Below are positions 2 to 21,537 of a stretch of DNA of 60,161 nucleotides, piece after piece; position 1 is the stretch's first letter, and each line of letters starts with the position of its first letter. The DNA lies in the IMG/VR virus record IMGVR_UViG_3300049596_000421, positions 1 through 60,161 of that record, one strand, 5' to 3'. Both the position numbers and the translations under genes were made by a program. The stretch is from a virus (Duplodnaviria > Caudoviricetes). Below the pieces are notes generated by a model. The model was not told the origin of the DNA, searched no databases, and worked only from the letters and a program-made list of their open reading frames with translations.

Positions 2-3000
2 AAAAAAGAATTGTTTGATGAGGCTCGTCGTATGACAAAAGATTTTAATATGGATGCGGTTTCATTTAAAATGAAAACATTCTATTATTCTCCGTTAACT
101 GAAGTATTAATTGATTGTTTTGCAACCGTCGCTATTAATAATTTTACTTTAAAAAATATGTTAAGGTTTAATGATTTAAGAGACTACACCTTTAATTGTA
201 CTCATATTGAAGATGGTGGTTATCACTTATCATTTTTTATGTCTCCGGAAGATATTAGAAAGAAGATTTTAAGTTTCTCACATACAGAATATAATTTACC
301 GGAATTTTCAGACTTAAATAAAATTAAACATAGAATGTTTACCGGTGTTGATATTTTTGAAAGACCTGAGTGTCCAACAATTCATTATCATAGTATTTCA
401 TCTGAATTTCCTATTGAATTTTATAGACACGAGATATTTTTTAAAAACACTTTTGACCGACTTTATTTAAAACCTGAAACCAAACGAAGAAGAAATGGTT
501 CGATGCAAATTCCTTTAGAAATTGAAAATCTACAACTTACGGTTAATAATCATCAACCTAAAATTATTGTTGAGATTGGAACCGCAAATGGAGGAACATT
601 GGCAAGATGGTTTGAAGTCCCATCATCAGAAATTGTTATTAGTATTGATTACCCAATTGGTATTCACGGAGGACAAGGATTTGAGGAAAGAACTTATGTT
701 ATTTCAGATGCTTTAGAACAGGCTAATTTAACAAACAAACAATTTTTCGCAATTAATGGAGATTCAAAACACCCTTATTTAGTTGAGAGATTACGAGAAA
801 TTTTAGATGGTAAAAAAGTAGATTTTCTTTTTATTGATGGTGACCATACATATGAAGGTGTTAAGGGAGATTTTGATTTGTACGAACAATTCTTAAATGA
901 AAATTCTATTGTTGGATTTCACGACATTATTGATAGTCAATTCCACTCTGAGAATAATTGTTTTGTTTCAACACTATGGTCAGAACTTAAACAAAAATAT
1001 GAAAGTGTTGAATTTATGTATCCCCAATTATTAGATGGAAATATTTTAGAATATTTTTATAATGCCGCCAATCACAAAGGAGGGTTTGCTGGAATAGGTT
1101 ATATAGAATACTCAAAAAAAAAAGATTTATCCAATAACATCTCATTAGTTGTTCCGATATATAACAATGTTGAAGAAACAATTATTAATGTTCAAACAAC
1201 CTTATCAACATCAAAACATATTGATGAGGTTATCTTATATTCAAATGGAACCGTAGAATCTGAAAATGACAAATTAAGATTGTTTTCAGAAACAAACCCA
1301 ATAATTAAATTGATTATTGTTGAGAAGGCGATTGGTTTTATCAAAGCGGTTAACGAATCATTTAAACTTTGTAAAAACGAATATATGCTTTGTTTAAATA
1401 GTGATGCGTCATTATATGATAATTGGGAGACACAATTACTTGATTTATGTCAAAATGAAAATAATGGGTTAGTTGGGCCTGTATTATGTGATGGGTTTAT
1501 ATTAGGTTGTTGTTTTATTGTTAAAAAATCTATTTTAAATAAAATAGGATTATTAAATGAAGGATATGGTTTAGGTTATTATGATGACAACGATATATCA
1601 AATAGAGTTAGTTCTAACGGATATGAATTAGGTTATAGTCAAATTAAATCCGGATATGATTGGGAGGACCAATTTGTTAATTTCCCAATTAATCATTCTC
1701 AAGGTAAGTCATTTAATTTAGTTGATAGTGATTTAATTACCGGTCAACAACGGACAAATAAATTAAAACTTGAAAAGTTCATTATCACAGAAAAAGTTGT
1801 TGTTTTAAAAAATTTAAGTTATGAAGATGTTAAATCATTATTAAATGAAGATGATGTTTTTATTATTGTCAATAAATCAGGTGATAATTTTGAAAAAATT
1901 AGATATGATGACGATATTGTTAGATTATCTCATATTTTTGAATGTACAAAAGAAATGGTTATTGAAGACATTGTTACTTCAACAACAAAAGGAAAAAAAG
2001 TTGAGTTTAGAACAATTAATAAACCAAAGTTTACTTGGTTAGCAAAATATGATGATTACGCATCGATGGGAATCCTATCTCAAAAGATTCTTGGAAATTT
2101 ACAAATTAGTGACGCTTCTTGTAAAGAAATTATTGGAGTCACCGAAACTAAAAATGAATTAATTCACGATTTAATTAAAAAACCAATCAATCACGATTTG
2201 GGTATTATGTTCGCATACCCTGATATGGTTGGTGAGTTAAAGGAATTTAAAACTAAAGTTATTTATACCGGAGTTGATACCACAGGTGGTTATAGTCGAT
2301 TTGTAGAAAAATCTAAAGAAATTGATTACATCCTAACCCCATCTAACCTATCAAAAGATAGAATGATTAAAATGGGTGTGACAAAACCAATTTTTGTGTT
2401 TCCTCACGGAATAGAAAAAAATGAATTCACATACAAACCAAGAGTAGTGAGTGATAAGTTTAAATTCTTATATGTTGGTGAATGTAGTGATAGAAAAGGT
2501 ATTTTCCACTTATTAAGAGCGTTTACTGAATTATATAAAAATAACCTCAATGTTGAATTACATTTAAAATCAAACACCGCAATGATATTCTATGGAGGTA
2601 ATGAAGTTCAAAAATATGTTGATGAAAATTCAAATATATTTTGGGATATATCCGATACCGGTCACGAAAAAACTTTAGAATTATATAATGAATGTCACGT
2701 CTATATTTACCCATCAAGAGCTGACACTTTTGGTATGACAGTATTAGAAGCGATGGGTTGTGGATTACCGGTCATTTCAACATCAGAACCAGGTTCAACT
2801 GAATTAGTTAGAGGGATGTATATCGATATACCGACTAATGAAGTTCCTGTAGTTGGACATCCTTGGATGACCGGAAATTGGGGTGAGCCAAGTTATCAAA
2901 TGTTAACACTTCTAATGAAGACTATACAGGAAAATTATAATGATTTTTCAAAACCTGAAAAATTAAAAGAAATTTCTGAATATGTTAATAAAAATTATTG

Positions 3001-3649
3001 TTGGGAAAAAATTACCGAAAATTTTGAGAATAATATATTACCTAATTTAGTAAAAGAAGTTAAAATTGTTACACTATTAACGTCATATAAAAGACCTCAC
3101 CATATTAAAAATATAATTAATTGTCTTAAAGATATTAGAGAAAATGGTTATAACAATGACATATATATTGTTGATAATACCAATGATGATTCAAAAGAAG
3201 AAGTTACAAAAGTAATCAATGACAATATTGACAACAAATTCACCTTATATTCCTCAAGTTTTAATTTAGGTCAACGAGGCGCTCTTCTTCAAATGTTAGA
3301 CGATATTAATATTGATGATTATGATTTTATACAATTTACCGACCAAGATAATTTATTATTAGAACCTTTAAGTACGTATTGTAATATTTTAAATGAAAAT
3401 CCGGACATATTTTTTGCAAGTGGGTATATGAGTAAAGAACACGGAGAACTTGGGTGGAGAAACACAAGGTTTGGTAATTTATGTGAAAAACGCTCATTAA
3501 GAGCGGGTCATATGTTTATGAGAGTAAGTGATTTAAAGAATATGTTACCAATTCATTTAGATAGTCAATACGGACAACCACATAATTCATCTTGGTACGC
3601 AGGGTTAGATTGGGAAGTTTCATATTGGAACCCAAAATCTCCGGCATAA
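2..3649 (+). CDS. Multidomain glycosyltransferase/methyltransferase fusion (GT17-like, class I SAM methyltransferase, GT2, GT4, GT-A-like); 5' end lies outside the window
   Basis: The frame is open from base 2. Motifs: GGYHLSFFMSPEDIRKKILSFSHTEYN (GT17-like); VEIGTANGGT and DFLFIDGDHTYEGVKGDF (Methyltransf_24-like); ISLVVPIYNN and CLNSD (GT2); FLYVGECSDRKG and YPSRADTFGMTVLEAMGCGLPVI (GT4); LLTSYKRP and FTDQD (GT-A). Confidence 0.85.
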   Translation, partial: KKELFDEARRMTKDFNMDAVSFKMKTFYYSPLTEVLIDCFATVAINNFTLKNMLRFNDLRDYTFNCTHIEDGGYHLSFFMSPEDIRKKILSFSHTEYNLPEFSDLNKIKHRMFTGVDIFERPECPTIHYHSISSEFPIEFYRHEIFFKNTFDRLYLKPETKRRRNGSMQIPLEIENLQLTVNNHQPKIIVEIGTANGGTLARWFEVPSSEIVISIDYPIGIHGGQGFEERTYVISDALEQANLTNKQFFAINGDSKHPYLVERLREILDGKKVDFLFIDGDHTYEGVKGDFDLYEQFLNENSIVGFHDIIDSQFHSENNCFVSTLWSELKQKYESVEFMYPQLLDGNILEYFYNAANHKGGFAGIGYIEYSKKKDLSNNISLVVPIYNNVEETIINVQTTLSTSKHIDEVILYSNGTVESENDKLRLFSETNPIIKLIIVEKAIGFIKAVNESFKLCKNEYMLCLNSDASLYDNWETQLLDLCQNENNGLVGPVLCDGFILGCCFIVKKSILNKIGLLNEGYGLGYYDDNDISNRVSSNGYELGYSQIKSGYDWEDQFVNFPINHSQGKSFNLVDSDLITGQQRTNKLKLEKFIITEKVVVLKNLSYEDVKSLLNEDDVFIIVNKSGDNFEKIRYDDDIVRLSHIFECTKEMVIEDIVTSTTKGKKVEFRTINKPKFTWLAKYDDYASMGILSQKILGNLQISDASCKEIIGVTETKNELIHDLIKKPINHDLGIMFAYPDMVGELKEFKTKVIYTGVDTTGGYSRFVEKSKEIDYILTPSNLSKDRMIKMGVTKPIFVFPHGIEKNEFTYKPRVVSDKFKFLYVGECSDRKGIFHLLRAFTELYKNNLNVELHLKSNTAMIFYGGNEVQKYVDENSNIFWDISDTGHEKTLELYNECHVYIYPSRADTFGMTVLEAMGCGLPVISTSEPGSTELVRGMYIDIPTNEVPVVGHPWMTGNWGEPSYQMLTLLMKTIQENYNDFSKPEKLKEISEYVNKNYCWEKITENFENNILPNLVKEVKIVTLLTSYKRPHHIKNIINCLKDIRENGYNNDIYIVDNTNDDSKEEVTKVINDNIDNKFTLYSSSFNLGQRGALLQMLDDINIDDYDFIQFTDQDNLLLEPLSTYCNILNENPDIFFASGYMSKEHGELGWRNTRFGNLCEKRSLRAGHMFMRVSDLKNMLPIHLDSQYGQPHNSSWYAGLDWEVSYWNPKSPA

Positions 3650-3891: not shown

Positions 3892-6800
3892 ATGCAGGTA
3901 ATTCAAATCACAAGTTTAACGGGGCACTCCCCTTATGATATTACAATTTGTGATGTTACCAACACGTATTGTTATTTAGGTATTTCAGGGGCTACATCGG
4001 CACCTTTAACAATTAATATCCCAACAGAACTTACTAATGTTCAAGAAGTGTTAGTTGTTATTACTGACTCTCTTGGTTGTTCAGAGATTCAATATCATTA
4101 TTGTGATGAACCAAAACCATCACAAACACCAACCACCACACCCACACCAAGTCCGACACCCCCTTTATGTAATTGTATATCATTTGAAAATACTTCAGGG
4201 GTAACATTAAATTATAGTTATACTAATTGTAACGGAGAATTTTTTAATGGAGATATCTATTCAGCAACAACATTATTTGTTTGTGGACATAATCCATCCG
4301 CAGATAGTGGTGTGATAATTAACATATCTTCAGATATTTGTATTGATAATGTGTGTCCGGGACCAACACCAACACCAACTACCACCCCAACACCAACTCC
4401 AACATTATTACCAATTGTTGGTTATTTTGAAGATAGTTGTGACCCACTAAATCAATTTACATTAGCGAATATCCCAATATCATTTAGTCCTTTATCAGGG
4501 GATTACTATATTGAGAGTGACGGGTTTGTTGGTTGTGCAACTTATGTTGTAAGCTCATCGACTAATTATATTTATTCATTTATTTCAATGGGGTCTCAAC
4601 CGAGTATCTACCATTGTCAGAAAGCCAATTTTATTTACCCTTGTCCAAGTAGTACGCCAACACCAACACCAACATCAACACCTTGTGTTGGTTGTAAGAA
4701 TTATATCTTATATGGAGGTTCAGGTAGAGGTGGTAACTCTACATTTCAATATATACCTTGTGGGGAAGTTTCATCAATTAATATTGATATCCCAAGAAGT
4801 GATTTTGGTACTGAGTTTAGTCAAAATATATGTGCCGAATGTAATAGTGTTTATAAATTAACCACTAGTGGGAGTTACGGTATTGTGGGGGCGTGTCCAA
4901 CACCAACACCGACACCAACATATACACCAACACCAACACCAACAACACCGGTTAAATATATCTTATTCCAAGTTCAATCTTGTTGTTCTAAAAAAATTAT
5001 AAAATACATAATGTTACCATCAACATTTTTACCTGGTACGGCAATTGTTAATTCATATGGTGAATGTTTGGAAATAATTGATAAATCTCGGGGAGATGCG
5101 TGGGTAACTGATTATTGGAATCATTTAACAACATATGTGGATTGTGAGTTATGTATTAAATATCAAACTTGTGACCCAATCACACCACCACCATTTATAT
5201 CCGTTTGGACGACAACATCTCCTAACGAAACTATTGTATTACCATATGAAACTTCAGGGTTTTATTATGGGACTATTGATTGGGGTGATGGAACTATTAC
5301 TACTAATGATTATGTTAATAGGTCACACATTTATGTAACACCAGGAACTTATACGATAACAATAACCGGAACATTAATTGGTTGGTGTTTTGGGTTATAT
5401 CCCTCAAGTGCATTAAACATTGTCGAGGTATTACAATGGGGTTGTTTGCAATTAGGAAATTCAGGTTTTAATTTTGTCAATTGTCAAAATTTAACATTAA
5501 ATAATGTTAGTGATGTTTTAAATTTATCAGAAACAAATAGTTTATACTCAACATTCTCCGATTGTAATAGTTTAACTACAATAAATAATGTTAATTCTTG
5601 GGATACATCAACGATAACCAATATGGTTGACACTTTTATTTATTGTTATAATTTTAATGATGACATCAGTAATTGGGATGTTAGTAATGTTACCGATTTT
5701 GGAGGTATGTTTAATAACGCCTGGTCATTTAATCAACCAATTGGTATTTGGGACACTTCTAGTGCTCTTAGTATGGTTAATATGTTCTTTTATTCATCAA
5801 ATTTTAATCAAGATATTGGAAATTGGGATGTGTCAAATGTGACTGATATGAACGATATGTTTAATAGTGGTGTTCAATTTAATAATGGAGGTTCCCCATC
5901 TATTAATAGTTGGTTAACATCTAATGTTACAAATATGTCGGGTATGTTTCTCTCAACCCCATTTAATCAACCAATTGATAGTTGGGATACATCAAGTGTT
6001 ACTTCTACGTCATTTATGTTTTTTAATACAACCCAATTTAATCAACCATTAAATTCTTGGGATGTAAGTAATGTTATAAATATGTCGTATATGTTTAACC
6101 AAGCAATATCCTTTAATCAACCTTTAAATTCTTGGAACGTCGGTAATGTTACTACTATGTCTAGTATGTTTAACGGAGCAAATGTATTTAATCAAGACAT
6201 TGGTAATTGGGATGTTAGTAGTGTAACTGATATGGTAGCGATGTTTAGGGATGCGTCATTATTTAATCAAGATATTGGTAGTTGGGATGTTAGTAGTGTC
6301 ACTAGTATGGGTTTAATGTTTCAAAGATTTAATACCTTAGTTAGTTCATTTAATAATGGTGGGTCCCCATCTATAAGTGCGTGGACACCATCATCAGTGA
6401 CAAGTATGTTTGGTATGTTTAACGGAGCAAATGTATTTAATCAAGACATTGGTAATTGGGATGTTAGTAATGTTATAACTTTTGGAGGTATGTTTTTAAC
6501 CGGTGGGATTTTTAATAATGGAGGTTCTCCGTCAATTAGTGGATGGACAATTAACACTTCAAGTAGTGTTAGTATGTATATTATGTTTGGTTTTGGAGCG
6601 TTTAATCAACCTATAGGTTCGTGGAATGTTTCAAAGGTTACTACTATGACTGAAATGTTTAGGGGAAATTTCTCGTTTAATCAAGATATAGGTGGATGGG
6701 ATGTTAGTAGTGTTACCGATTTTACTAATTTTATGCAGGGTAAAACATTTTCGGATTATTCAACAACAAATTTAGACGCAATATACAATGGGTGGAGTTC

Positions 6801-6930
6801 ATTACCTTCACTACAACCATTTATTAATATTAATTTTAACACAATTAAATATACCGCAGCTAGTTCAGCAGGGAAATCAATACTTCAAGGAGCACCAAAT
6901 AATTGGACAATTACCGATGGTGGTATATAA
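3892..6930 (+). CDS. Pro-Thr-linker, Cys-rich modular protein with a PKD-like domain and DUF285/BspA-like repeats; probable virion surface or adhesion protein
   Basis: Several PTPTPT tracts; TIDWGDG...[15 protein letters not shown] (PKD-like); more than ten repeats of FNQ[DP]I[GS]xWDVSxVTxMxxMF. Confidence 0.8.
5590..6740 (+). repeat. DUF285-type coding tandem repeats
   Basis: About 25-aa units (some longer), recurring as tttaatcaa...tgggatgttagta; includes an identical 57-nt duplication at 6164-6220 and 6413-6469. Confidence 0.85.
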
Positions 6931-6984: not shown

Positions 6985-8232
6985 ATGAAAATATTTGTCC
7001 AAATTGCGTCCTATCGTGACCCTCAACTTATCCCAACAATTAAAAATATGTTGGAGAATGCAAAAAAACCTAAAAATTTAGTAATCGGAATTTGTCGTCA
7101 ATACCATCCTGAGGATGGATTTGATGATTTATCTGAATATGCGAAAGATAAACGATTCAGAGTTGTTGATGTTCTATATACCGAATCTAAAGGTGTATGT
7201 TGGGCAAGAAATCAAGTACAACAATTATATAAAGGTGAGGAATATACCCTTCAAATCGATTCTCATATGAGATTTGAGAAGGATTGGGATGACACTCTAA
7301 TCAAAATGATTAAACAACTTCAAAAGAAAGGGTTTAAGAAACCTTTGTTAACAGGATACGTATCTTCATTTGACCCGGACAATGACCCGGCAGGTAGAGT
7401 TAAAGAGCCTTGGAGAATGGCTTTTGATAGATTCATTCCTGAAGGGGCGGTATTCTTTTTACCTGAAACAATCCCGGGATGGGAAACACTTACCGAACCG
7501 GTGACTTCACGATTTTATTCTGCCCATATGGCGTTTACCTTAGGACAATTTAGTCTTGAGGTTCAACACGACCCTGAATTTTATTTTCACGGAGAAGAAA
7601 TATCAATTGCTGTTAGAGCATTCACTCACGGATATGATTTATTCCACCCACATAAAACTGTAATTTGGCACGAATATACTCGTAAGGGTAGAACCAAACA
7701 ATGGGATGACGATAAAGAGTGGGGTAAGAAAAATGAATTATCACATAAGAAAAATCGTCAATTATTTGGTATGGACGGTGAAGAAGTTACTTTGGATTTT
7801 AGTTATTATGGTTTTGGAACCGAAAGAACTTTAAAAGATTATGAAATATATTCAGGACTTAAATTTTCAAATAGAGCTGTTCAACAACATACATTAGATA
7901 AAAAATATCCACCAAACCCTCAAATTTTTGAGACTGAGGAAGAATGGTTGGCAAGTTATGCAAGTATTTTCAAACATTGTATTGACATTGGATTTTCTCA
8001 AGTTCCTGAAAAAGATTATGAATTTTGGGTTGTTGCTTTCCACGATGAAAAAGACGAAACACTTTTTAGAAAAGATGCGGACATCAACGAGATTAATAAT
8101 ATGTTAAGAGACCCTGATGGGTATTGTAAAGTTTGGAGAGATTTCCAAACAACTCATAAACCAAAATACTGGGTTGTTTGGCCGTTTAGTAAGTCAAAAG
8201 GTTGGTGTGATAGGATAACGGGTAACTTATAA
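6985..8232 (+). CDS. GT60-type (Pfam GlcNAc-like) polypeptide N-acetylglucosaminyltransferase
   Basis: IFVQIASYRD, GVCWAR...LYKGEEYTLQIDSHMRF...WD and FHGEEISIAVRAFTHGYDLFHP...WHEY match the Skp1-hydroxyproline/polypeptide GlcNAc transferase family signature. Confidence 0.8.
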   Translation: MKIFVQIASYRDPQLIPTIKNMLENAKKPKNLVIGICRQYHPEDGFDDLSEYAKDKRFRVVDVLYTESKGVCWARNQVQQLYKGEEYTLQIDSHMRFEKDWDDTLIKMIKQLQKKGFKKPLLTGYVSSFDPDNDPAGRVKEPWRMAFDRFIPEGAVFFLPETIPGWETLTEPVTSRFYSAHMAFTLGQFSLEVQHDPEFYFHGEEISIAVRAFTHGYDLFHPHKTVIWHEYTRKGRTKQWDDDKEWGKKNELSHKKNRQLFGMDGEEVTLDFSYYGFGTERTLKDYEIYSGLKFSNRAVQQHTLDKKYPPNPQIFETEEEWLASYASIFKHCIDIGFSQVPEKDYEFWVVAFHDEKDETLFRKDADINEINNMLRDPDGYCKVWRDFQTTHKPKYWVVWPFSKSKGWCDRITGNL

Positions 8233-8234: not shown

Positions 8235-9083
8235 ATGGTTAAAATTTACGATGAATACGATTCATATTTAGAGGGAGGACATTTTTCATCACCAAGAAAA
8301 AATTTGGGGAATAAGTTGTTTATATATTCCGCTTGTAGAATAATTAGTGAGATATTAGGGTATGAATTAATATCTCCCGAAAATGCGTTAGTAAGAAGAG
8401 AAGACACCGAAAATGGGCGATATAAAGAAATTATATTCCCGTTTAAAGGGGTTAAAGGAAACATTGTGGATAACCCAATTAAAGTTATTCAAGATGGTGA
8501 CATCATACATTTAGGTAGTATTGAAAATTTAATACAATCTTACCCAAATCACGGATTTATAAATCAATCATATTTTTCAAAATATGATTACATTAAACCA
8601 TATAAAACTAAAGTTAAAGAATACTTTAAAAGTATTGTTAAAGATAAAAGGGTTGGTAATGATTTAGTGATTATGTTAAGGAGTAGTAATCACGACGGGA
8701 GTTTTGTTTTACCTGACAGTTATTACCTTAATATCATATCTCAAGAAACTTTTGATAATCTATATATTTCATTTGACCATATAAACAAACATCAATCGTT
8801 AATTAGTAAATTAGAAAAATATAACCCTAAATTAATTGATGGTGATATACTTAACGTTTTTTCAGAAATTACATCATTTAACACAATAATTGCGGCTCAA
8901 GGAACATTTTCTTTTTGGGCTTGTTTTCTATCTAACGCTAATAAAATATATTGGCCAATTACTAATGATGGTCCAAATTCCGGCAAAAACTCAGATAATC
9001 CGGTATTCAACTCATACGTTAATTTAACGGTTGATGATGAATCAAGATATGAATTAATAAACGTAACAGATATATACAAATGA
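8235..9083 (+). CDS. GT11-like (alpha-1,2-fucosyltransferase family) glycosyltransferase
   Basis: N-terminal LGNKLFIY; central LVIMLRS...YY; C-terminal IIAAQGTFSFWACFLS. Confidence 0.65.
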   Translation: MVKIYDEYDSYLEGGHFSSPRKNLGNKLFIYSACRIISEILGYELISPENALVRREDTENGRYKEIIFPFKGVKGNIVDNPIKVIQDGDIIHLGSIENLIQSYPNHGFINQSYFSKYDYIKPYKTKVKEYFKSIVKDKRVGNDLVIMLRSSNHDGSFVLPDSYYLNIISQETFDNLYISFDHINKHQSLISKLEKYNPKLIDGDILNVFSEITSFNTIIAAQGTFSFWACFLSNANKIYWPITNDGPNSGKNSDNPVFNSYVNLTVDDESRYELINVTDIYK

Positions 9084-9760
9084 TAAAAACAATAGCTTTT
9101 AGTCTTTTTGGTACCGAAATGAAGTATTACGTAGGTGCTGAAAAAAATGTTATAATTAATAAAGAATTATTACCAGATTGGACAACCGTAATTTATTACC
9201 ATCCTCAAAACATAATTGAAGGTTATGTCGAAAAACTAGCGTCATTAGGAGCAACAATGGTGGATGTGTCGAATATTAAATTAGGCAATAAAGAATCGAT
9301 TCATTTCCCATATTTTTGGAGATTCCTTTCGTTTTTACAAGACAGTCCCTCAATAGTTAGAGATTTAGATAGTAGAATTTCTGATAGAGAAGTGAAATAT
9401 ATTAGAAAATGGGAAGAAACAAATGAAGATTATTTTATAATAAGAGACCATCCGTGGCACGCACCCGTACCAAGTGGGTTATTTGGTATTAAGAAAAAAA
9501 TAGAAGAGTTTGAACAACACTTTATTGAATTTGTTAATATTGATGAATTACGTTGGGGTTCCGACCAAGAAATTTTGAGAATTTATATGGAAAATATTAG
9601 TGATGATAATGTGTTTTATTGTGGTTACGATATTCAAACCAATTATATACCTAGAGACGATAAAACCTTTTTTATTGGAATGCAACTAAATGAAAATGAT
9701 GAACCAACAGTCCCAAGTGGAGTGCAGTGTTTAAATTACCTAAACGAAATAAATTTATAA
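9080..9760 (+). CDS. Putative glycosyltransferase-like protein
   Basis: IAFSLFG...YFWRF...VRDLDSR...IIRDHPWH...GSDQ; has a DxD-like motif and sits inside the GT cluster. Confidence 0.55.
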   Translation: MIKTIAFSLFGTEMKYYVGAEKNVIINKELLPDWTTVIYYHPQNIIEGYVEKLASLGATMVDVSNIKLGNKESIHFPYFWRFLSFLQDSPSIVRDLDSRISDREVKYIRKWEETNEDYFIIRDHPWHAPVPSGLFGIKKKIEEFEQHFIEFVNIDELRWGSDQEILRIYMENISDDNVFYCGYDIQTNYIPRDDKTFFIGMQLNENDEPTVPSGVQCLNYLNEINL

Positions 9761-11998: not shown

Positions 11999-12870
11999 AA
12001 TCAGTCATAACCGCGTCATTTAATAGTGGGTTAGGAGATATGTATACAAATCTTTATCAAATTTATTATTTACAAGAAGAATTAAAAAAAATTGGATATG
12101 AGGTTAAAACAATCATTGATTTAGGGCGTAACCCTTATAAAATGTATAGTGAAGACAGAAACATATTTAAAAGAATTTTTAAATTAGATTTGTTAGATGA
12201 GTTGGAAATTGTGATAGGTAATCTTGAAACAGTTAATGATGATTTAAGTCAAGATTTAATTAAGGTATATAACTATGAACATATTCATACAGTATTTGTT
12301 GATGAAAAAAGTGACGAATTTGATAACATTAAACACGTAAAACATTCTTGGTATTATAGAGATGATTTACCAAAAATTAACCTATTTAGTGATGAGGTAA
12401 CAAAATATTGTGAATTAAAATCTAAAGAGATAGGTGATAATTATATTGGATTACATTATAGACCATTTTCATCAGATAATGAGGATAATATTGAATCTGA
12501 TTTAGAAAATTACAAATTAGAAATAAATAATATTTTAGAAGAAAACCACGATAAAATTGTGTTTATTTCGACAAATAAATTTTTAGTAAAGGAGTATTTA
12601 AAAAATAGTAACTACACTAACTACTATATCAATGAGTTTGTTTTTCCTAACGTACACGACAGTATTAGGGAATTAAAAATTAACGATGACGATTTATTTG
12701 AAATTTTAAAAGAAACATTATGTGATATGTATTTACTGTCAAAATGTGAGAAAATATATAGGATTGCAAATTGGTTTTCCGCTTTTTTATCTTTCTCTTG
12801 TTTATATAATCAAACCAATGTTTCTAATACGTTAAGATATTACCCTGAATACCCAATATTACCACTTTAA
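11995..12870 (+). CDS. Fucosyltransferase-like GT-B glycosyltransferase (GT11/GT23/NodZ-like)
   Basis: SGLGDM; YIGLHYR; VFISTN; DMYLLSKCEKI...SAF. Confidence 0.6.
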   Translation: MKSVITASFNSGLGDMYTNLYQIYYLQEELKKIGYEVKTIIDLGRNPYKMYSEDRNIFKRIFKLDLLDELEIVIGNLETVNDDLSQDLIKVYNYEHIHTVFVDEKSDEFDNIKHVKHSWYYRDDLPKINLFSDEVTKYCELKSKEIGDNYIGLHYRPFSSDNEDNIESDLENYKLEINNILEENHDKIVFISTNKFLVKEYLKNSNYTNYYINEFVFPNVHDSIRELKINDDDLFEILKETLCDMYLLSKCEKIYRIANWFSAFLSFSCLYNQTNVSNTLRYYPEYPILPL

Positions 12871-12904: not shown

Positions 12905-13483
12905 ATGGATTTTTACTCACAAATTGGACAAGATAGACTTGTCTTAAAATATTTAAAAAATAAAATGAACGGCACCTTTGTTGATGTTGGTTGCGGATTT
13001 CCTAAACTTATCAACAATACTTATGTCTTGGAAAATAACTTTAATTGGGGTGGGATATCAATTGATATTCATATGTTCACTGAAGAAGATGGTATGGTAT
13101 GGGATGACTGTAGAAACACAAAATTAATTTTAGCAGATGCTTTAACGATTAATTATTCGTCGTTATTTAAAGAAAATAACTTACCAATAAATATAGATTA
13201 TTTAAGTATGGATTTAGAGCCACCAGATTTGTCATTGGAATGTTTGTTTAAAATACCATTTGATGAATATACTTTTAATATTATCACATTTGAGGTTGAT
13301 AACAATAGAGAGGGTGATACACGAAGAATTTCAGAAAGTAGAGAATTTTTAAAATCAAAAGGTTATACATTAATAGGTTCAATTTGTAGTGGACAAGATG
13401 ACGTATATTTACATAATTCGTTAATTGAATTGACTAACGAATTTACATTTTTTGATGAGGATATCATATGGACAAAACAATAA
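12905..13483 (+). CDS. FkbM-like SAM-dependent methyltransferase
   Basis: FYSQIGQD, GTFVDVGCG, NNTYVLE, WGGISID, IDYLSMDLE, FNIITFE. Confidence 0.75.
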   Translation: MDFYSQIGQDRLVLKYLKNKMNGTFVDVGCGFPKLINNTYVLENNFNWGGISIDIHMFTEEDGMVWDDCRNTKLILADALTINYSSLFKENNLPINIDYLSMDLEPPDLSLECLFKIPFDEYTFNIITFEVDNNREGDTRRISESREFLKSKGYTLIGSICSGQDDVYLHNSLIELTNEFTFFDEDIIWTKQ

Positions 13484-13532: not shown

Positions 13533-14165
13533 ATGAATTACGAAGATAAAATAACTAAAAAATCCGATTTAAAATGCAATGATAGTGTTTCGGTATATAA
13601 CGGCTCTTGGGGAGCTCAACAAAATCCAAATGTTTTTGAAACGTTTCATTATTTTTTAAATGATATTAAACCTAAACAAATTTTAGAAATAGGTACATCA
13701 ATAGGTGGGTTTACGTCATTCTTAAATTATACCTGTAAAAAACTTGGTATTAATTCTCACATTATCTCTTACGACATTAATGAACTTTCTTGGTATGAAG
13801 ATATGAAATCGGAAGGTGTTGATGTTAGAGTGGAAAATGTATTTACTCCTAACTATGACGAAGTTAAACAAGAGGTTATAGATTTTATCAATAATGATGG
13901 AGTAACTTTAGTTCTTTGTGATGGTGGTGATAAAATAGGTGAGTTTAATTTATTATCAAATTACATTAAACCGGGTGACTTTATAATGGCTCACGATTAT
14001 TCCCAAGACTCGGAAACATTTGAATCAAATGTTAATAATAAAATATGGAATTGGCACGAAATTTCCGATAAGGACATCGAAGATGCTTGTGTTAAAAATA
14101 ATTTAATAAGTTATAAAAAAGACGTTTTTGATAACGTTGTTTGGGTTTGTAAAACAAAAATATAA
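13533..14165 (+). CDS. CmcI/rhamnosyl O-methyltransferase-like SAM methyltransferase
   Basis: KPKQILEIGTSIGG, IISYDI, LVLCDGG, IKPGDFIMAHD. Confidence 0.7.
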   Translation: MNYEDKITKKSDLKCNDSVSVYNGSWGAQQNPNVFETFHYFLNDIKPKQILEIGTSIGGFTSFLNYTCKKLGINSHIISYDINELSWYEDMKSEGVDVRVENVFTPNYDEVKQEVIDFINNDGVTLVLCDGGDKIGEFNLLSNYIKPGDFIMAHDYSQDSETFESNVNNKIWNWHEISDKDIEDACVKNNLISYKKDVFDNVVWVCKTKI

Positions 14166-14166
14166 T

Positions 14167-15840
14167 ATGTCAGTAACTATAGTAACCGGTTTATGGGATA
14201 TAGGTCGAGGAGACCTTCAAGAAGGATGGTCGAGGTCATTCCAACATTATTTAGATAAATTTCAACAACTATTACAAGTTGATGTTAATATGATAATTTT
14301 TGGTGACGAAGAATTAGAAAAATTTGTATTAAATAATAGACGTAGTGAAAATACTCAATTTGTTCGTAGAGATTTATCTTGGTTTAAAAACAATGATTTT
14401 TTCAATAAAATACAACAAATAAGAACTAACCCTGATTGGTATAATCAAGTTGGATGGTTAAGTGAATCGACACAAGCCAAATTAGAGATGTACAACCCTT
14501 TGGTTATGTCCAAAGTATTTCTTTTGCACGATGCGAAAATTTTAGATAAGTTTGATTCAGAATATATGTTTTGGGTTGATGCTGGATTAACCAATACAAT
14601 CCATCCAGGATATTTTACGCACGACAAAGTATTAGACAAACTACCCCAATTAGTTAAGAATTTTCATTTTGTTTGTTTCCCTTATGAAACAAATAGTGAA
14701 ATCCACGGATTTAAATATTCTGAGTTATGTGAATTGGCAGGGAAACCCGTTAATATGGTTGCAAGAGCCGGATTCTTTGGGGGTAAAAAAGATGTTATAT
14801 CAGAAATTAATAGTATATATTATGGTTTAATGAATGATACATTATCTCAAGGATTGATGGGGACAGAAGAGTCATTATTTACAATTATGACGTACAAATA
14901 CCCAGATTTAATAACTTATTCTGAAATAGAAGGTAATGGTTTAATGGGTAAATTTTTTGAAGACTTAAAAGATATGACAGTTGAGATTAAATCTGAAGTG
15001 TCTGATGACGTTGTCACAAATAATTTAGACGATTCAAAAGTTGGACTTTATGTTATTACATTTAACTCACCAAAACAATTGGAGGTTTTAATAAAATCAA
15101 TGTTAGATTATGATGCTGACTTTATTAATAAACCAAAAAAATTCTTATTAGATAACTCAACGGATTTATCTACAACACCACAATATATTGAATTATGTGA
15201 AGAGTATGGATTTGAACATATTAAGAAAGATAATATTGGTATTGTTGGGGGTAGAGTATTTGTTGCCGAACATTTTGAAGAAACTGATTTAGATTTTTGT
15301 TGGTGGTTTGAGGATGATATGGCATTTCACCCTAAAAAAGATGAGGTTTGTAGAAATGGATTCCCAAGATTTGTTAACAATTTATATCAAAAATCATTAG
15401 ACATTGTAAAAAAAGAAAATTTTGATTTTTTAAAATTAAATTTTAGTGAATTTTTTGGTGATAATAGTGTTCAATGGAGTTGGTATAATGTTCCTCAGGA
15501 TTTTAGACAATCTCATTGGCCCAACAATAAAAAATTACCGGTTCAGGGGTTAGACCCAAATTCCCCAAAAACAAAATTTAACGAAATTAATATTCATAAA
15601 GGATTACCTTATGTGTCAGGAGAAATTTACTTATGTAATTGGCCAATTGTGTTAACAAAATCCGGAAATTATAAATGTTATTTAGAAACTAAATGGGCTC
15701 ACCCATTTGAACAAACTCTGATGTCTTACGCTTATCAAGAAACGGTGAAAGGTAACATTAATCCGGGGTTATTATTATTAACACCAACGGAACATAACAG
15801 ATTTGAACACTATGACGGTTCTTTAAGAAAAGAAAGCTAA
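14167..15840 (+). CDS. HtrL/YibB (WlaTC)-family glycosyltransferase fused to a C-terminal GT2-like domain
   Basis: Likely ATG at 14167 (MSVTIVTGLWDIGR); YNPLVMSK, YMFWVDAG, AGFFGG and GTEESLF; second domain LYVITFNSP...LLDNS...WWFEDD. Confidence 0.75.
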   Translation: MSVTIVTGLWDIGRGDLQEGWSRSFQHYLDKFQQLLQVDVNMIIFGDEELEKFVLNNRRSENTQFVRRDLSWFKNNDFFNKIQQIRTNPDWYNQVGWLSESTQAKLEMYNPLVMSKVFLLHDAKILDKFDSEYMFWVDAGLTNTIHPGYFTHDKVLDKLPQLVKNFHFVCFPYETNSEIHGFKYSELCELAGKPVNMVARAGFFGGKKDVISEINSIYYGLMNDTLSQGLMGTEESLFTIMTYKYPDLITYSEIEGNGLMGKFFEDLKDMTVEIKSEVSDDVVTNNLDDSKVGLYVITFNSPKQLEVLIKSMLDYDADFINKPKKFLLDNSTDLSTTPQYIELCEEYGFEHIKKDNIGIVGGRVFVAEHFEETDLDFCWWFEDDMAFHPKKDEVCRNGFPRFVNNLYQKSLDIVKKENFDFLKLNFSEFFGDNSVQWSWYNVPQDFRQSHWPNNKKLPVQGLDPNSPKTKFNEINIHKGLPYVSGEIYLCNWPIVLTKSGNYKCYLETKWAHPFEQTLMSYAYQETVKGNINPGLLLLTPTEHNRFEHYDGSLRKES

Positions 15841-15876: not shown

Positions 15877-18800
15877 ATGGAATTTTTTATAAAGAAAAAC
15901 GCAACCTTACCCTTATTAAAATTACAGGTAGTTAAAGACGGTAGAAGTGATTACAATAATTTTATGGAATTATTGGAGACATCCACCATATTCTTTTCTA
16001 TGGTTAATTCTGAGACAGGGATTCCTAAGATAACTTCAAGACCGGGAGGGTTTGTTGAAAAAATATTTGACGACCCAAATGCCGAACCTGAATACTACAT
16101 TTACTATCAATTTACCAAACAAGATACAAGTATTGAAGGTAGATATGAAGGGCAATTTTTAATTAAAACATTTGAAGGTAATGTCATATTACCTATTAGA
16201 GAAAAATTATTTATATATGTTCAAGAATCGTTTATTGCTGACGATTTAGAGTATAATACTTGTTATACCTCAACATTCCCTTGTTGTGGTAATCCGGATA
16301 TTATTGAGAATCCGGATGAAAATACTATCACTATTGTTCCACAATATTATCCGGGTTCAATAGGTGTATTATACACCGTAACATCAAGATATCCGGTGGA
16401 TACTGATATCACAGTAACATTTAAAAATGTTTTAGGTGTTACTACGGGTGACCCAATAATTATTGATTCTTCAGTTTCAATCTTTACAGGTAGTAAAGAG
16501 GGTATAACTGAACTTATTATTGATGAAGATTTCGATAGATTAAATTTATACACACTATTTTCTGATATTATATTAACAGATAATGGACCTTCACAATACT
16601 TTAATGTTCCTATTATTGGAGGACCAATTGAAATTGACCCTATAAAACCAAGACCTTTTCCAAAATATATATCGGCATATGTTACAAGTTGTTGTGATGA
16701 TACTGAAAAATGTATGATAAAAATACCATCCTTCATAGATATTGTGGTTGGTAATAGTCTTTTAGGGAGTGATGGAATATGTTATACAATTCAAAAATTA
16801 AATATTGTTTGTGATATGGATATGGATAATATAGTGTCTTATGGACAATCATATTATGAAAATTGTAAATTTTGTCTTTCAAAGTATCCTTGTGAAGTTA
16901 TTAAAGAAACTCCAACACCAACTCCAACATCAACACAAAACCTTTGTTTAGTTACTCCAACACCAACACCAACAACTAAAAAAGATTGTGTTAGACCTGA
17001 ATTAAATACTGTTTTAATTAGTAGTGGGAACACATTCCTATTGTATTTTACAGTAACGGGTCCTTGTACAACAATGTTAGTTAATTGGTCGTCAGATAAT
17101 ATTACTTTTAATAGTGAATCAGGTAGTTGTTCATCACCAAGAAGTATTACAATACCAGGTTCATTACCTCCAACAATATATTTTAATATTAGTCAATTTA
17201 ATAATGAATGTCCGACATTTACATCTAATACTTTAACGTATAATGTAATACCGGTAACACCTACACCAACACAGACTAATACTGCAACTCCAACACCAAC
17301 GGGGACACCATTACCTTCTGTTGTGGTGGGGTTTGTTGATTGTTGTGATAGTTCAAATATTTTTATAATATCAGAGATGCCATCATTTGATGGTGGATAT
17401 GATGGGACGTATTTTGTTCAAAGTTCAGGTTTTAATGGTTGTGCGACAGTTATAGAATTAATTGATAGACCAAAATTTGTGTATTCTTATATTGGTTTAA
17501 TAAAACAAAAAGATTGTCAAAGTTGTTTTGATAATACAGGAACGGTTTGTTCTACTCCTACTCCAACACCTACTGTTACACCAACAGTTACACCATTAGT
17601 TTGTGATATTGATTTTGAGGTTATTTTGTTAAGCCCAACACCAACCCCAACACAAACACCTACAAATACAATAACCCCAACACAAACACCTACAAATACA
17701 ATAACACCCACACTTACGGTTACACCAACACCAACAAAACCAAGTCCACCTTGTTTTGGGTATTTATATAATTTTTATGCAATAACCGGTACAACAACTC
17801 AGTCACTTACTAGTAATGATGATTGGGTGGTACCAACAAAGGCTAATTTAGATACACTTGTTTCTTCTGTTGGTAATAATGGTAATTCATTAAAGTTAGT
17901 TGATGTTACCACATATTGGGACTCAAACAATATAAATGCGACTAATAGTTCAGGGTTTAGTGCTATTGGTAATGGAAGTAGAAATAATCTTTTCTTCACA
18001 TCTCAAAAAAGTTCATCAGTGTATCGTTCAATAACACCATATAATAGTGGTGGTTCTTATGTGATGAGTTTAAATTCTAGTCTTAGTACTGTAACTGTGG
18101 ATGGGGCACCATCACACCTTAATGGGTATGCAATTAGATTAGTAAAAAATACAACAGCATTAAATCCGGGACAAACAGGCACTTACATTGGAAACGACGG
18201 AAAAACATATAACACAATTTGTATTGGGACACAGGAATGGATGTCTCAAGATTTAAGAGAAACGTCATATAGAAATTTATCTTCAATACCAAATATTGCT
18301 AACCAAACAATTTGGAATGTGTTGAATAGTGGTGCTTATTGTATATATGATAATAATCCATATAATGTTAGTGGGTGTCAAATAACACCAACACCAACTA
18401 AGACATCAACTCAAACACCAACACAAACACCTACAAATACAACTACACCTACTCAAACTCCAACAATTTATTGTATTGAAATAGTGGGTGAATCTGGTTG
18501 TGGTTATGTTTATCCTACTCAAGGAGTAGGTTTAATGGGTGGTAAAAAATATTGGACAGGAACTACCGCAACTGGTAATCCTTTTATGATATATTGGGAT
18601 ACTACTCAATATTGTTGGGTTGTTAAAAATACTAACACAAATGAATTGTGTTCTAGATTATACATTAATTCAGAATACCCTATTGGTGATTACACCGAAT
18701 GGGTGTCTGTTGGAAATGTAACACCGAGTTGTTCGTGTTTATCAGACGATACTTATTTTGGTACAAGATTAATTACTTGTACAACACAAACTCCAACACC

Positions 18801-19578
18801 AACAAAAACTCCAACACCTACTGTTACACCAACAAAAGGAACAATAGTAGTACCTCAATGTTCGGTAATATACCAAACTTCAAGTACTTTGTTTTACTCA
18901 TATGATAAAAACACCAATGTTTCTACATTGTTAAATTTAAATACTATCCCACAATCACTTGGTGGTGATGTTGCTCACACAATTAATAAATTATGGAGAT
19001 ATAACAGTATAGGACAAATATATGAATCTAACATAACATTAAACCCATTTTCATCCACAGCTAATCGAACTATTAATATAAGTGTTAATTTAGGACCGGG
19101 GTTATGTGCCATTGATGATACTCATTTAATTTCTTCAACACAAATTAGTGGTGTTGGTAGTGATACTGTAATTAAAATCACATTAAACCCTAACAATACC
19201 TGCACAATAGAAAATTTATTTGCGCTGCCTTTAGGAAGATATATTTCAGGGGATTTTATATACACAACAAATGGTAAAATTATACTAACATCATTTAGTT
19301 CAGGTAATCCATTGTCGTATTATATTTCACAATATGTTTTAATTGGTAATATCTGGACAATTGAATTTGATAAAAATATTACAACCACAGCACCTAAACC
19401 ATTTGGTTTAGGTATAATAGACGGAGGTATTTATATTTTTAGTGAATCAAATCTAAAACAAATAAGTATAACATTTCCTTATACCGTTACACAAGTAAAT
19501 AATATTGGTAAACCGGTGGGTGGGGCATCACAAGTTCCAAGTTGTTGTAACGTAACATTTATAACATCACAATCATAA
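15877..19578 (+). CDS. Large Pro-Thr-linker modular virion protein (BppU-like Ig N-terminus, Cys-rich modules, permuted FISUMP domain)
   Basis: [18 protein letters not shown]...YQFTKQDT...GRYEGQF resembles baseplate-upper-protein Ig domains; several PT tracts; FISUMP motifs [15 protein letters not shown] and [16 protein letters not shown]. Confidence 0.7.
17643..17702 (+). repeat. 30-nt tandem duplication within a PT linker
   Basis: aaccccaacacaaacacctacaaatacaat occurs twice; a further partial copy lies near 18418. Confidence 0.85.
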
Positions 19579-19590
19579 TAATAAAACAAT

Positions 19591-21537
19591 ATGGGAACAT
19601 TTTTAGAGATAACAACAACAAATTATAACGGACAATTAGCCGAAATAACCTTTTTCCCTTGTTCGGGGGGGACTATTTTTATTGGTCAAGTCACTTTACC
19701 ATATTATTATGATAATCCTTATTATTATGGTACATATCAGATTTATATACCTAATTACAATGAATATTGTGATTTAGTAATTCCTTGTCCAACACCGTCA
19801 CCAACATCCACACCAACACTTACACCAACTCGTAAAATAAGAAATTTACCGTATAGAGTATTATCTTGTTGTAGTCGTCTTTCGGGTGTAATAATATTAC
19901 CATCAACTTTTGATATTGGTATGACAATATTAACTACCTCTAAATTATGTATGACAATTATTGATTTTGCACCAAAAGGTAGTATACCAACATTTACTTG
20001 GTCAGGTATTTCATATGATGGTTGTGAAAAATGTTTAGAAGATTATCCTTGTAATCCTAACCCAACTCCGACTCCAACCCCAACTAGTTGTAAAGGTTGT
20101 CAAAGTTATACCTTAGATGGTGGTTTAGGTAGACGTGGATACACTGAATTTAGTTACATCCCTTGTGGTGAACGAACACCTGTCACCATTTTTATAGATA
20201 GAACGGATACAATACCTGGAAATACACTTACAGTTTGTGCGGAATGTTACTATGGTATTGTAATATTATCCGGTCCGGGTAGTTATGTGATATCGGGAGA
20301 ATGTGTTAAACCAACACCAACTCCAACACCAACTAAAACTCCAACCCAAACACCGTTAACAAATTTTTGTCTTATAATAAGTCAAGAATGTGGAACGGTT
20401 TTCCCTATTGAAGAAAAAGAGTTAATAAATGGTAAAAAATCTTGGACAACCACAATAAATGGTAATCCTGCTTTAATATATTGGGATAACATACAACTTT
20501 GTTGGGTGGTTAAAAATACGGATACTGATGAAGAATGTTCTAAGTTATTTATTGATTCTGAATACCCTGTTGGGGATTACACTCAATGGGTTTCGACAAT
20601 ACCACCTACAGAAGGTTGTTCGTGTTTATCAACAGACACTTATTTTAATATACAATTAATTAATTGTCCGACACCAACACCTACACCAACAAATACTGTT
20701 ACACCAACAGTAACTCCAACAATGACATCCACACCAACACCAACAATGACACAAACTCCAACAAATACGGTGACATCGACTAGCACACCAACAAATACGG
20801 TAACATCGACTAGTACACCAACACCAACAAATACTGAAACACCTACTCAAACACCAACAAACACCTCAACGACAACACCAACACCAAGTGTAACATCTTC
20901 ACCATTACCACCAATTATTGGATATTTTCAAGATTGTTGTGATGAAACTATTAAGTTTAAAGTGGGTTCATTGGTTCAATCATTAAATATTGGAGAATCA
21001 TACTATGTTGTGACAGATGGGTATTCAGGGTGTACAATAGCTATTAATGAAACACTTGTTTCGGTTCAATACTTGGAGACATTAGTTTTAAGTCAGGAAG
21101 GTAATTGTGAAACTTGTAACGTTAAATATTCAAAAGTGTGTCCGACACCAACTCCAACCCCAACTCCAACAAATACAGAAACTCCGACACCAACTCCAAC
21201 ACCAACTGAAACCCCAACACAAACACCAACTAATACGGAAACCCCAACACAAACCCCAACACCTACTATAACAGAAACCCCAACTCAAACACCAACACCA
21301 ACAAATACAGAAACTCCGACTCAAACACCGACGAATACGTTAACATCAACACCGACACCTACTATGACACCCACAACAAGTCCTGAAGTGTGTATTGATT
21401 GTAATGTATCAGGGTATACTTATATTATATCTGATTCAGTGATTTATCCTACACCAATGCCAACAAGAACTTCAACACCGACACCAACTAAAACACCGGA
21501 TAATACAATATACACAATATGGGTACATATTGAATAA
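19591..21537 (+). CDS. Mucin-like Pro-Thr-rich, Cys-rich modular protein
   Basis: Two PT tracts of about 80 aa; Cys-rich modules paralogous to those in the 3892 and 15877 ORFs. Confidence 0.8.
   Translation: MGTFLEITTTNYNGQLAEITFFPCSGGTIFIGQVTLPYYYDNPYYYGTYQIYIPNYNEYCDLVIPCPTPSPTSTPTLTPTRKIRNLPYRVLSCCSRLSGVIILPSTFDIGMTILTTSKLCMTIIDFAPKGSIPTFTWSGISYDGCEKCLEDYPCNPNPTPTPTPTSCKGCQSYTLDGGLGRRGYTEFSYIPCGERTPVTIFIDRTDTIPGNTLTVCAECYYGIVILSGPGSYVISGECVKPTPTPTPTKTPTQTPLTNFCLIISQECGTVFPIEEKELINGKKSWTTTINGNPALIYWDNIQLCWVVKNTDTDEECSKLFIDSEYPVGDYTQWVSTIPPTEGCSCLSTDTYFNIQLINCPTPTPTPTNTVTPTVTPTMTSTPTPTMTQTPTNTVTSTSTPTNTVTSTSTPTPTNTETPTQTPTNTSTTTPTPSVTSSPLPPIIGYFQDCCDETIKFKVGSLVQSLNIGESYYVVTDGYSGCTIAINETLVSVQYLETLVLSQEGNCETCNVKYSKVCPTPTPTPTPTNTETPTPTPTPTETPTQTPTNTETPTQTPTPTITETPTQTPTPTNTETPTQTPTNTLTSTPTPTMTPTTSPEVCIDCNVSGYTYIISDSVIYPTPMPTRTSTPTPTKTPDNTIYTIWVHIE
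20668..21380 (+). repeat. Low-complexity (CCAACA)n-like coding repeats (PT linkers), interrupted by one Cys-rich module
   Basis: acaccaacacca-type arrays at about 20668-20900 and 21142-21380; near-perfect 30-nt tandem repeat at 20758-20817. Confidence 0.85.

Follow-up and report, generated by a model that had tools for sequence, protein, structure and literature searches.

The 60,161-base stretch of DNA analysed here (the window), which is the whole of the IMG/VR virus record IMGVR_UViG_3300049596_000421, carries at its 5' end (positions 2 to 21,537) an island in which genes for glycan-building enzymes lie among genes for three large proteins rich in Pro-Thr (PT) tracts. We suggest, with moderate confidence, that this island encodes a cytoplasmic protein O-glycosylation system that is initiated by a glycosyltransferase of family GT60 and acts on the phage's own PT-rich fibre- or adhesin-like proteins; to judge from the sequences, the phage probably sugar-coats its own fibre-like proteins. 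Phage-encoded glycosylation of virions and GT60-initiated mucin-type glycosylation are each known already. To our knowledge, GT60-started mucin-type protein O-glycosylation has been described only in eukaryotes, and we know of very few phages for which virion glycosylation by phage enzymes has been shown; full-text literature searches found no paper that joins GT60-initiated glycosylation with phages. A sequence-only reading of this DNA had proposed a mucin-type O-glycosylation system in which enzymes alternate with their likely substrates; our analysis confirms the observation and lends partial support to the interpretation.

The predicted initiator is the product of open reading frame (ORF) 6985 (positions 6985..8232; ORFs are named here by their first position), a soluble GT60 (PF11397) glycosyltransferase as judged from Pfam, PHROG and its predicted structure. 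Its assignment to GT60 by the sequence-only reading holds: the protein matches PF11397 with an E value of 4.4e-70 (237.3 bits; cut-off 21), a six-frame search agrees, and the match to the phage family PHROG 24687 reaches an E value of 2.9e-170. The AlphaFold model is of high confidence (predicted local distance difference test, pLDDT, 95.3; predicted template modelling score, pTM, 0.89), and comprises a GT-A catalytic domain (residues 1 to ~328) and a small C-terminal beta domain (residues ~329-415). When this model was compared with the Protein Data Bank (PDB) by Foldseek, the best matches were all polypeptide GalNAc-transferases (ppGalNAc-T; E 2.4e-10 and weaker); the top 29 entries in VIA-align were likewise all ppGalNAc-T (Z 19.4-22.8), and the next GT-A enzymes followed at Z 18.0 or less. 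These superpositions have root mean square deviations (rmsd) of 3.3-4.1 Å (mostly 3.3-3.7) over 265-284 residues that span positions 1 to ~328 of the model, except for the 29th entry, with 6.8 Å over 306 residues; residues ~329-415 are spanned by few structural matches. Searches of PDB sequences with ORF 6985 gave no match, whether the query was the protein itself or a profile. ORF 6985 is a genuine GT60 member with a ppGalNAc-T-like fold.

In an alignment of 44 homologues that reaches down to 34% identity, residues D92, H94, H229, E204, E205 and R211 are invariant. We take D92-x-H94 and H229 to be the presumed equivalents of the Mn ligands of GT27 enzymes. The maximum hydropathy of the protein is 0.79, and it has no membrane anchor. 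Metagenomic homologues are numerous: 7442 of the 7999 candidates scored match at an E value of up to 1e-5, and those at up to 0.001 fall into 4693 clusters at 50% identity. The C-terminal beta domain (window positions 7969-8232) has a nearly invariant Trp407 and occupies the place of the GT27 lectin domain, and some of the homologues (P0122-P0134 and others) are 1300-2461 residues long and contain up to four GT60-matching stretches.

The known members of family GT60 are polypeptide α-GlcNAc (N-acetylglucosamine) transferases that, in Dictyostelium and Trypanosoma cruzi, initiate mucin-type O-glycans on domains rich in Thr and Ser; their main difference from GT27 is the lack of a ricin-like domain, and the Skp1 enzyme of the family, Gnt1, is soluble and cytosolic, as described in the GT60-related part of PMC8724618. 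The phage enzyme belongs to the same Pfam family, PF11397, and is soluble and without a membrane anchor like Gnt1; neighbouring genes encode Thr/Pro-rich repeat proteins reminiscent of the mucin-type domains on which the known family members act. It differs from the protist enzymes in being phage-encoded, in that it would act in the bacterial cytoplasm, and in its extra C-terminal beta domain of ~85 residues. The closest solved structures are those of GT27 ppGalNAc-T from animals and Toxoplasma (GalNAc-T1, T2, T4, T7, T10 and T12; PGANT9; TgGalNAc-T3), yet their identity to ORF 6985 in the structural alignments is 11-15%, and ORF 6985 has neither a ricin-type lectin domain of the usual size nor a membrane anchor. 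The hydroxyproline route of Skp1 is unlikely for the phage: the prolyl hydroxylase family PF13640, the sole 2-oxoglutarate-dependent oxygenase family searched, was found in none of four records, namely the window and three relatives with a completeness of 91-100%. This makes Thr or Ser a likelier acceptor than hydroxyproline in this lineage.

All island enzymes and PT proteins are encoded on the + strand, with enzyme genes between the PT genes, so that the described alternation of enzymes with three PT-rich proteins on one strand was confirmed. ORFs 3892, 15877 and 19591 contain 29, 47 and 71 TPT/PTP triplets, respectively, and thus 147 of the 152 in the window; the other 35 window ORFs examined have five in total. 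One thousand shuffles of each protein gave means of 1.3, 2.9 and 6.5 triplets and maxima of 7, 10 and 15. At the DNA level, the tracts correspond to A-rich tandem repeats with periods of 6 to 36.

The first PT protein (3892..6930; 1012 residues) begins with a conserved N-terminal region of ~160 residues, continues with four PT tracts between small Cys-rich modules, and ends in five DUF285 (BspA-like) repeats (E 9e-111); a hydropathy scan found neither a signal peptide nor a membrane segment. The second (15877..19578; 1233 residues) combines an immunoglobulin (Ig)-like N-terminal domain (N-domain; residues 1 to ~123) with a variable body, in which PT linkers carry Cys-rich modules, and a Fib_succ_major domain (PF09603; E 1.4e-11), while the third (19591..21537; 648 residues) has ten PT tracts and consists to 35% of Pro and Thr (fractions 0.128 and 0.225). 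Cys accounts for 3.1-4.6% of the residues in the three proteins, and the small Cys-rich modules are common to all of them in differing order (blastp E 6e-30 to 1e-4; ORF 19591 matches 15877 at 6e-30 and 3892 at 7e-13). Since these modules are shared and are separated by PT tracts, the proteins can be viewed as beads on a string, with the PT tracts as the string.

Residues 1-160 of ORF 3892 recur in 46 of 80 related viral loci, and the rest of the protein in far fewer. These 80 loci are the best of at least 429 GT60 relatives in IMG/VR, with GT60 identities of 75-96%, and thus all contain GT60 by construction. The first ~146 residues of ORF 15877 recur in 68 of them, directly after the gene for an HtrL/GT2 enzyme (ORF 14128, see below), where they head proteins of 122-1233 residues. 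We take a conserved head with a variable tail to be typical of phage fibres and receptor-binding proteins, a pattern that the 15877-type proteins would fit. In its structural model the N-domain of ORF 15877 is an Ig-like sandwich (pLDDT ~90 for residues 1-123), for which Foldseek gives a baseplate chain of phage NF5 as best match (E 9e-4); it aligns with BppU of phage TP901-1 (4v96_AA) with Z 8.1 and an rmsd of 3.3 Å over 97 residues at 19% identity, with 3uh8 at Z 7.4, and yields an ESM Atlas lead to BppU_N with a score of 0.83. Because antibody V domains score almost equally (Z 7.7), we treat the likeness to BppU as a lead. The N-domain architecture, together with this weak BppU-like fold match of a predicted model, suggests that ORFs 3892, 15877 and 19591 may be virion parts.

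The layout of the island is widely kept among the related loci. When PT-rich ORFs are defined as those with at least eight TPT/PTP triplets, one lies within 10 kb of GT60 in 78 of the 80 loci, in keeping with the pairing of PT genes and GT60 that the sequence-only reading had proposed to test across relatives. In 79 loci an ORF ends no more than 500 nucleotides (nt) upstream of GT60, and it is PT-rich in 66 of these, even though the upstream ORFs vary widely in length (171 to 3315 residues) and fall into 54 distinct classes of length and triplet count. The HtrL/GT2 gene 14128 is present in 74 loci, and each gene between it and GT60 in 0 to 24 of the 80. From these counts a unit emerges that consists of a PT gene, GT60, a swappable cassette, the HtrL/GT2 gene, and an N-domain protein whose tail is variable and in many cases PT-rich. 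The island lies ~13 kb upstream of the tail sheath, tail tube and baseplate genes in the window, and likewise among structural genes in G001, a complete relative. Within positions 6904-6974, the 54-nt gap between PT gene 3892 and GT60 contains the region's best sigma-70-like site (11 of 12 positions) and a 19-nt AT-rich tandem repeat; a scan for sigma-70 promoters and terminators found 98 sites against a shuffle mean of 117, no better than shuffles.

The other enzymes of the island are compatible with the building of a complex glycan, and the sequence-only reading had counted about ten glycosyltransferase and methyltransferase genes. At the family level this stands for ORFs 2-3649, 6985, 10535, 13533 and 14128, and ORF 11075 is HtrL-like by hhalign; for ORFs 11995, 8235 and 12905 there are leads only, and ORFs 9080 and 9762 are without a family match. 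The first gene (2..3649), cut at its 5' end by the end of the contig, encodes a multi-domain enzyme recognised through Pfam and PHROG (glycosyltransferase match, E 5.4e-38) that comprises a CmcI/Methyltransf_24 methyltransferase (residues 168-313; PF13578, E 7.8e-11), a GT2 domain (residues 381-492; PF00535, E 7.8e-16), a GT4/GT1 domain (residues 812-943; PF00534, E 1.2e-21) and, at the C-terminus, a weak GT2_3 match (E 0.15); it is matched in five of the 80 related loci. A GT17 domain assumed at the start of this ORF was not borne out, as residues 1-163 gave no Pfam hit at an E value of up to 5; a six-frame search of the window with PF04724 (GT17) also found nothing, as it did in the control genomes.

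The two-domain enzyme that closes the cassette (14128..15840) has an N-terminal HtrL_YibB domain (PF09612; E 1.2e-19, 71.4 bits, cut-off 24.1) and a C-terminal GT2-like part (E 0.14), and its true start is probably the ATG at 14167. ORF 11075 (11075..11998; in 24 of 80 loci) is a putative HtrL_YibB-like glycosyltransferase; its sole link to HtrL is the profile comparison with the HtrL domain of 14128 (hhalign probability 97.6%, E 3.4e-12). The methyltransferases are a SAM-dependent (S-adenosylmethionine) enzyme (10535..11071; PF13489, E 1e-7; phrog_32762, E 1.4e-53; in 3 of 80 loci), an FtsJ/CmcI-like enzyme (13533..14165; PF01728, E 9.6e-8; PF04989, E 7.8e-5; in 15 of 80) and a possible FkbM-type enzyme with a weak match (12905..13483; PF05050, E 0.11; in none of the 80). 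Sugar O-methyltransferase-type domains are thus present according to Pfam, as the methylation component of the sequence-only reading had it. Its fucosylation component finds a counterpart in G001, where a GT10 fucosyltransferase lies inside the GT60 island.

The GT11 label that the sequence-only reading gave to its capping enzymes was not upheld. ORF 8235 (8235..9083; in 6 of 80 loci), a variable cassette gene with a weak GT11-type motif, stays below the cut-off of PF01531 (E 0.013; 15.2 versus 23.9 bits; 38 residues covered) and matches the glycosyltransferase family phrog_2644 with an E value of 9e-5; no Pfam domain was found among 170 of its homologues, a PDB profile search with it gave nothing useful, and hhalign detected no relation between it and ORF 11995. 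The latter (11995..12870; in one of 80 loci) may be a GT-B enzyme of the fucosyltransferase superfamily (NodZ/FUT8/O-FucT-like), as its ESM Atlas feature scores are 0.95-0.97 to clusters with PF05830, PF19745 or PF10250; it has no match by hidden Markov model (HMM), including GT11, and none in the PDB by sequence or profile, and since the FUT8_N_cat HMM found nothing in the window, the ESM Atlas is the sole source of this reading. Two further variable cassette genes, 9080..9760 and 9762..10523, occur in 7 and 12 of the 80 loci, the former with no Pfam or PHROG match and the latter with no credible one.

A hydropathy scan of 17 island and flanking proteins found no membrane-like segment in 16 of them and no signal peptide in any; the sole hydrophobic stretch is located inside a GT2 core. 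No Pfam family for a flippase, a polymerase or a polyprenyl-phosphate transferase was found in the window proteins. Because the island proteins are predicted to be soluble and such lipid-carrier machinery is missing, glycosylation would be direct, sequential and cytoplasmic, and would draw on host nucleotide sugars. In the pathway that we envision, the GT60 enzyme would place the first N-acetylhexosamine, most likely α-GlcNAc from the host pool of uridine diphosphate (UDP)-GlcNAc, on Thr (or Ser) residues in the PT linkers of the modular proteins 3892, 15877 and 19591. The chain would then be extended by the HtrL-like enzymes (11075, 14128), the GT2/GT4 enzyme (2-3649) and the swappable transferases, and would probably be capped through O-methylation by the CmcI, TylF and FtsJ-type methyltransferases and, in some relatives, by fucose. 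The resulting coat might stiffen and protect the linkers and alter the adhesion or recognition properties of the fibres. In this scheme the PT tracts are the presumed acceptors, and the donor sugar and the order of the glycan steps are likewise our assumptions. Owing to the swapping of cassettes, the glycan would differ between close relatives.

If this is true, a family seen as a eukaryotic mucin-type initiator has phage proteins as its substrates in the cytoplasm of bacteria, the glycan is diversified by cassette exchange, and the phages concerned are so abundant that metagenomic homologues number in the thousands. It would bear on the adhesion of large phages to cells or particles and on their resistance to proteases, and glyco-engineering in E. 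coli would gain soluble enzymes that need no lipid carrier; ORFs 19591 and 6985 form a directly testable substrate-enzyme pair.

GT60 is also present in a few cultured phages. Among 50,697 phage records, homologues at an E value of up to 1e-5 occur in four (45-48% identity): XacN1 and Xoo-sp13, which infect Xanthomonas, and RAS14 and CM1, which infect Stenotrophomonas. All four share with the window GT60, an HtrL-like gene and the HtrL/GT2 gene in the vicinity of PolB (ORF334-ORF330 in XacN1); in XacN1 and RAS14 these form one cluster, in which the 11075-like gene (ORF332 in XacN1) is 27% identical and the HtrL/GT2 gene (ORF330 in XacN1) 40-42% identical over its full length to the window counterparts. 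The XacN1 group differs in its inner genes, which encode a carbamoyltransferase and a GT9 enzyme where the window has methyltransferases and other enzymes, in that the PT gene is not directly adjacent, in its gammaproteobacterial hosts, and in a G+C content of 43-49% versus ~31%. In XacN1 and RAS14 a giant ORF with C-terminal PT tracts lies ~10 kb from the cluster; that of XacN1 (ORF325; 3313 residues) directly follows the baseplate wedge genes. Sites that code for (PT)3 number 31 in XacN1 and 11 in RAS14 genome-wide, whereas the reversed-pattern control gave none. XacN1 virions are reported to contain at least two glycoprotein bands detectable by Schiff staining, and phage glycosyltransferases have been suggested as their makers; in its pertinent sections, the report does not link ORF334 to GT60 or PT tracts (PMC5852040). 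On a tentative footing, which we rate below the proposal for the window, one may envisage GT60-initiated mucin-type O-glycosylation as a trait of a widespread group of aquatic jumbo phages and of Xanthomonas/Stenotrophomonas jumbo phages, which would thereby coat the PT linkers in their modular fibres with a cassette-swapped, fast-evolving glycan that would serve host range or evasion.

Approached from the side of the PT tracts, a scan of IMG/VR for (PT)6-coding DNA provided 127 viral loci from an estimated 3300 such stretches in the collection. A GT60 gene (31-73% identity) was present in the flanks fetched for seven of these loci, which fall on six contigs; in four of the six, no more than ~1 kb separates GT60 from a PT ORF. 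As the 127 loci were chosen for their PT tracts, they document an enrichment of GT60 near PT tracts and not the reverse.

Several findings weigh against our proposal. The other 120 of the 127 viral (PT)6 loci have no GT60 in the flanks that were fetched, and PT linkers hence do not need GT60. A non-PT gene with 0-1 triplets sits directly upstream of GT60 in 12 of the 79 loci, and as the 80 loci are close kin, their shared layout partly reflects descent and does not amount to 80 independent observations. A tandem GT60 pair (35% identity) in a Rickettsiales metagenome-assembled genome (MAG) has no PT protein within 10 kb. In G001, 11 of 371 frames of at least 100 residues are PT-rich (at ~67, 108-115, 180-194, 210-215, 248 and 271-278 kb), and over 15 kb separate eight of the 11 from the GT60 island; the recognisable glycosyltransferases of this genome are all located at ~172-226 kb, with none detected in the first 160 kb. 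Two of the eight, at 210-215 kb, have a second glycosyltransferase cluster (220-226 kb) at a distance of no more than ~9 kb, and scattered PT genes would pose no problem for a system that acts in trans. The 31 (PT)3-coding sites of XacN1 are likewise spread over the genome, and the stained bands of its virions are not assigned to proteins in the part of the report that describes them (PMC5852040). With respect to a location in the virion, the near-equal Z scores of antibody V domains and BppU tell against a specific likeness of the 15877 N-domain to baseplate proteins. Furthermore, the Cys-rich modules would be made in a reducing cytoplasm, and the disulfides of many of them would have to wait until after lysis; G001 encodes a thioredoxin and a glutaredoxin. 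It should also be stressed that adjacency alone cannot prove a substrate.

Three other roles for the island need to be weighed against glycosylation of the PT proteins. The enzymes might modify other virion proteins, such as capsid, tail sheath or decoration proteins, with the PT tracts being plain flexible linkers encoded in the same hypervariable region. Mycobacteriophages and chloroviruses are precedents for glycosylated virion proteins, and the scattering of PT-rich genes in G001, mostly away from glycosyltransferases, the many PT loci that lack a GT60 nearby and the unusually long tail sheath of the window (1195 residues) would all suit this possibility. So would the mycobacteriophage system of Freeman et al. 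(2023), in which phage glycosyltransferases decorate the phage's own structural proteins; as cited in PMC12619734, its targets are the C-termini of capsid and tail tube proteins, and GT60 or PT-linker proteins are not mentioned in that citation. We nevertheless regard this role as rather unlikely, given that 66 of 79 loci retain a PT-rich gene immediately before GT60 despite changes in the sequence and size of that gene, and that GT60 enzymes and their structural neighbours in GT27 act on unfolded Thr/Ser-rich stretches (as outlined in the part of PMC8724618 on these families), which no window ORF besides the three PT proteins contains.

Remodelling of a host envelope glycan (lipopolysaccharide, LPS; capsule; or a host glycoprotein), for instance for a block of superinfection or the release of progeny, is suggested by the repertoire of HtrL_YibB, GT2, GT4 and sugar methyltransferase genes, which is typical of LPS and O-antigen loci, by a weak GtrB-like PHROG match in the island (E 1e-4), and by the name under which the Joint Genome Institute (JGI) lists homologues, 'glycosyltransferase involved in cell wall biosynthesis'. 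This role appears improbable to us, as the lead enzyme 6985 is closest to polypeptide transferases, flippase, polymerase and polyprenyl-phosphate transferase are missing from the window proteins, the island proteins show no membrane segment, and the genome looks lytic and T4-like. Moreover, only one of 401 sampled Bacteroidota genomes had a strong PF11397 match; this was the MAG around which the sampling was centred, and the contig concerned is 230 kb long. A scan of genome contigs with the single GT60 protein reached six loci. Glycosylation of hypermodified bases in the phage DNA as an escape from restriction would draw on phage glycosyltransferases of a known kind (as cited in PMC12619734), and the island does adjoin PolB and replication genes; yet the GT60 fold is that of a polypeptide transferase, the window has no gene of the base hydroxymethylase type, the thymidylate-synthase-family ORFs of G001 are 170 kb away, and the many O-methyltransferases together with a fucosyltransferase-type enzyme are better suited to a complex glycan than to a DNA sugar. 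We therefore consider this role very improbable, and prefer GT60-initiated glycosylation of the phage's own PT proteins.

The architecture of these PT proteins has parallels in modular bacterial and fungal cellulases, whose folded modules are carried on O-glycosylated Pro/Thr linkers (see the linker-related part of PMC3490864). The cellulases differ in being secreted and glycosylated by host machinery outside the cytoplasm, whereas the enzymes of the window are viral and soluble. Among phages, the 'Moraphages', aquatic jumbo phages of Bacteroidota with genomes of ~300 kb, DnaK/DnaJ and several core glycosyltransferase groups, are comparable, as G001 also encodes Hsp70 and DnaJ; GT60 or PT proteins are not analysed in the part of that report that covers these genes (PMC12619734).

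The phage origin of the window, as stated by the sequence-only reading, is firm: besides its status as an IMG/VR record, it encodes a tail sheath, a tail tube protein, a T4-type baseplate protein, PolB, a gp32-like and a UvsX-like protein, an SNF2 helicase and a 5'-3' exonuclease. According to CheckV it is ~20% complete; its G+C content is ~0.31, it has no tRNA genes, and a megablast search with its first 22 kb gave no match to a known phage. Related IMG/VR records are 272-322 kb long and 91-100% complete, and G001 encodes a T4-like portal, a prohead protease, a terminase, Hsp70, DnaJ, ClpB, SmpB and a sigma factor. In view of this gene content and the size of the related records, the window comes from the genome of an uncultured aquatic jumbo myophage that is T4-like and of low G+C content. 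MAG contigs with GT60 genes of 68-84% identity are labelled Bacteroidetes or Saprospiraceae, and these labels hint at a Bacteroidota host. SprB repeats are a repeat type of gliding adhesins in Bacteroidota, and their occurrence in a PT-rich protein of G001 (112198-114858) fits such a host.

Besides its GT10 fucosyltransferase, G001 has further genes for sugar tailoring, which include TylF and Methyltransf_24 methyltransferases and, outside the island, a GDP-mannose-dehydratase-like epimerase and a sugar C-methyltransferase. These tailoring genes would fit a wider programme of decorating fibrous proteins. An adenosine 5'-phosphosulfate (APS) kinase and a sulfotransferase (200191-201451) lie beside BspA-LRR, collagen-repeat (1856 residues) and PT genes, a constellation that hints, at the level of sequence, at phage sulfation of glycans or proteins.

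Outside the island, the window contains several other genes of note. Straight after the PT genes, positions 21556-22815 encode a 419-residue protein that matches a phage protease family (phrog_20754; E 2.5e-16), and positions 22841-25474 encode an 877-residue protein with a C-terminal PEBP domain (PF01161; E 1.2e-12). The long tail sheath protein (35354-38941) is matched by sheath families in its last ~315 residues only, and two baseplate-region proteins of 1641 (43529-48454) and 2228 residues (48773-55459) are without a family match. In G001 (5326-7631), separate ORFs match the first and the second half of the thymidylate synthase family, with an ORF of 231 residues between them; the gene may be interrupted by an intron or a homing element. 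G001 also encodes Acb1-like (anti-CBASS; L084:9610-10173) and Tad6-like (anti-Thoeris; L098:17816-18520) proteins, ClpP, and a superoxide dismutase that is fused into a protein of 512 residues.

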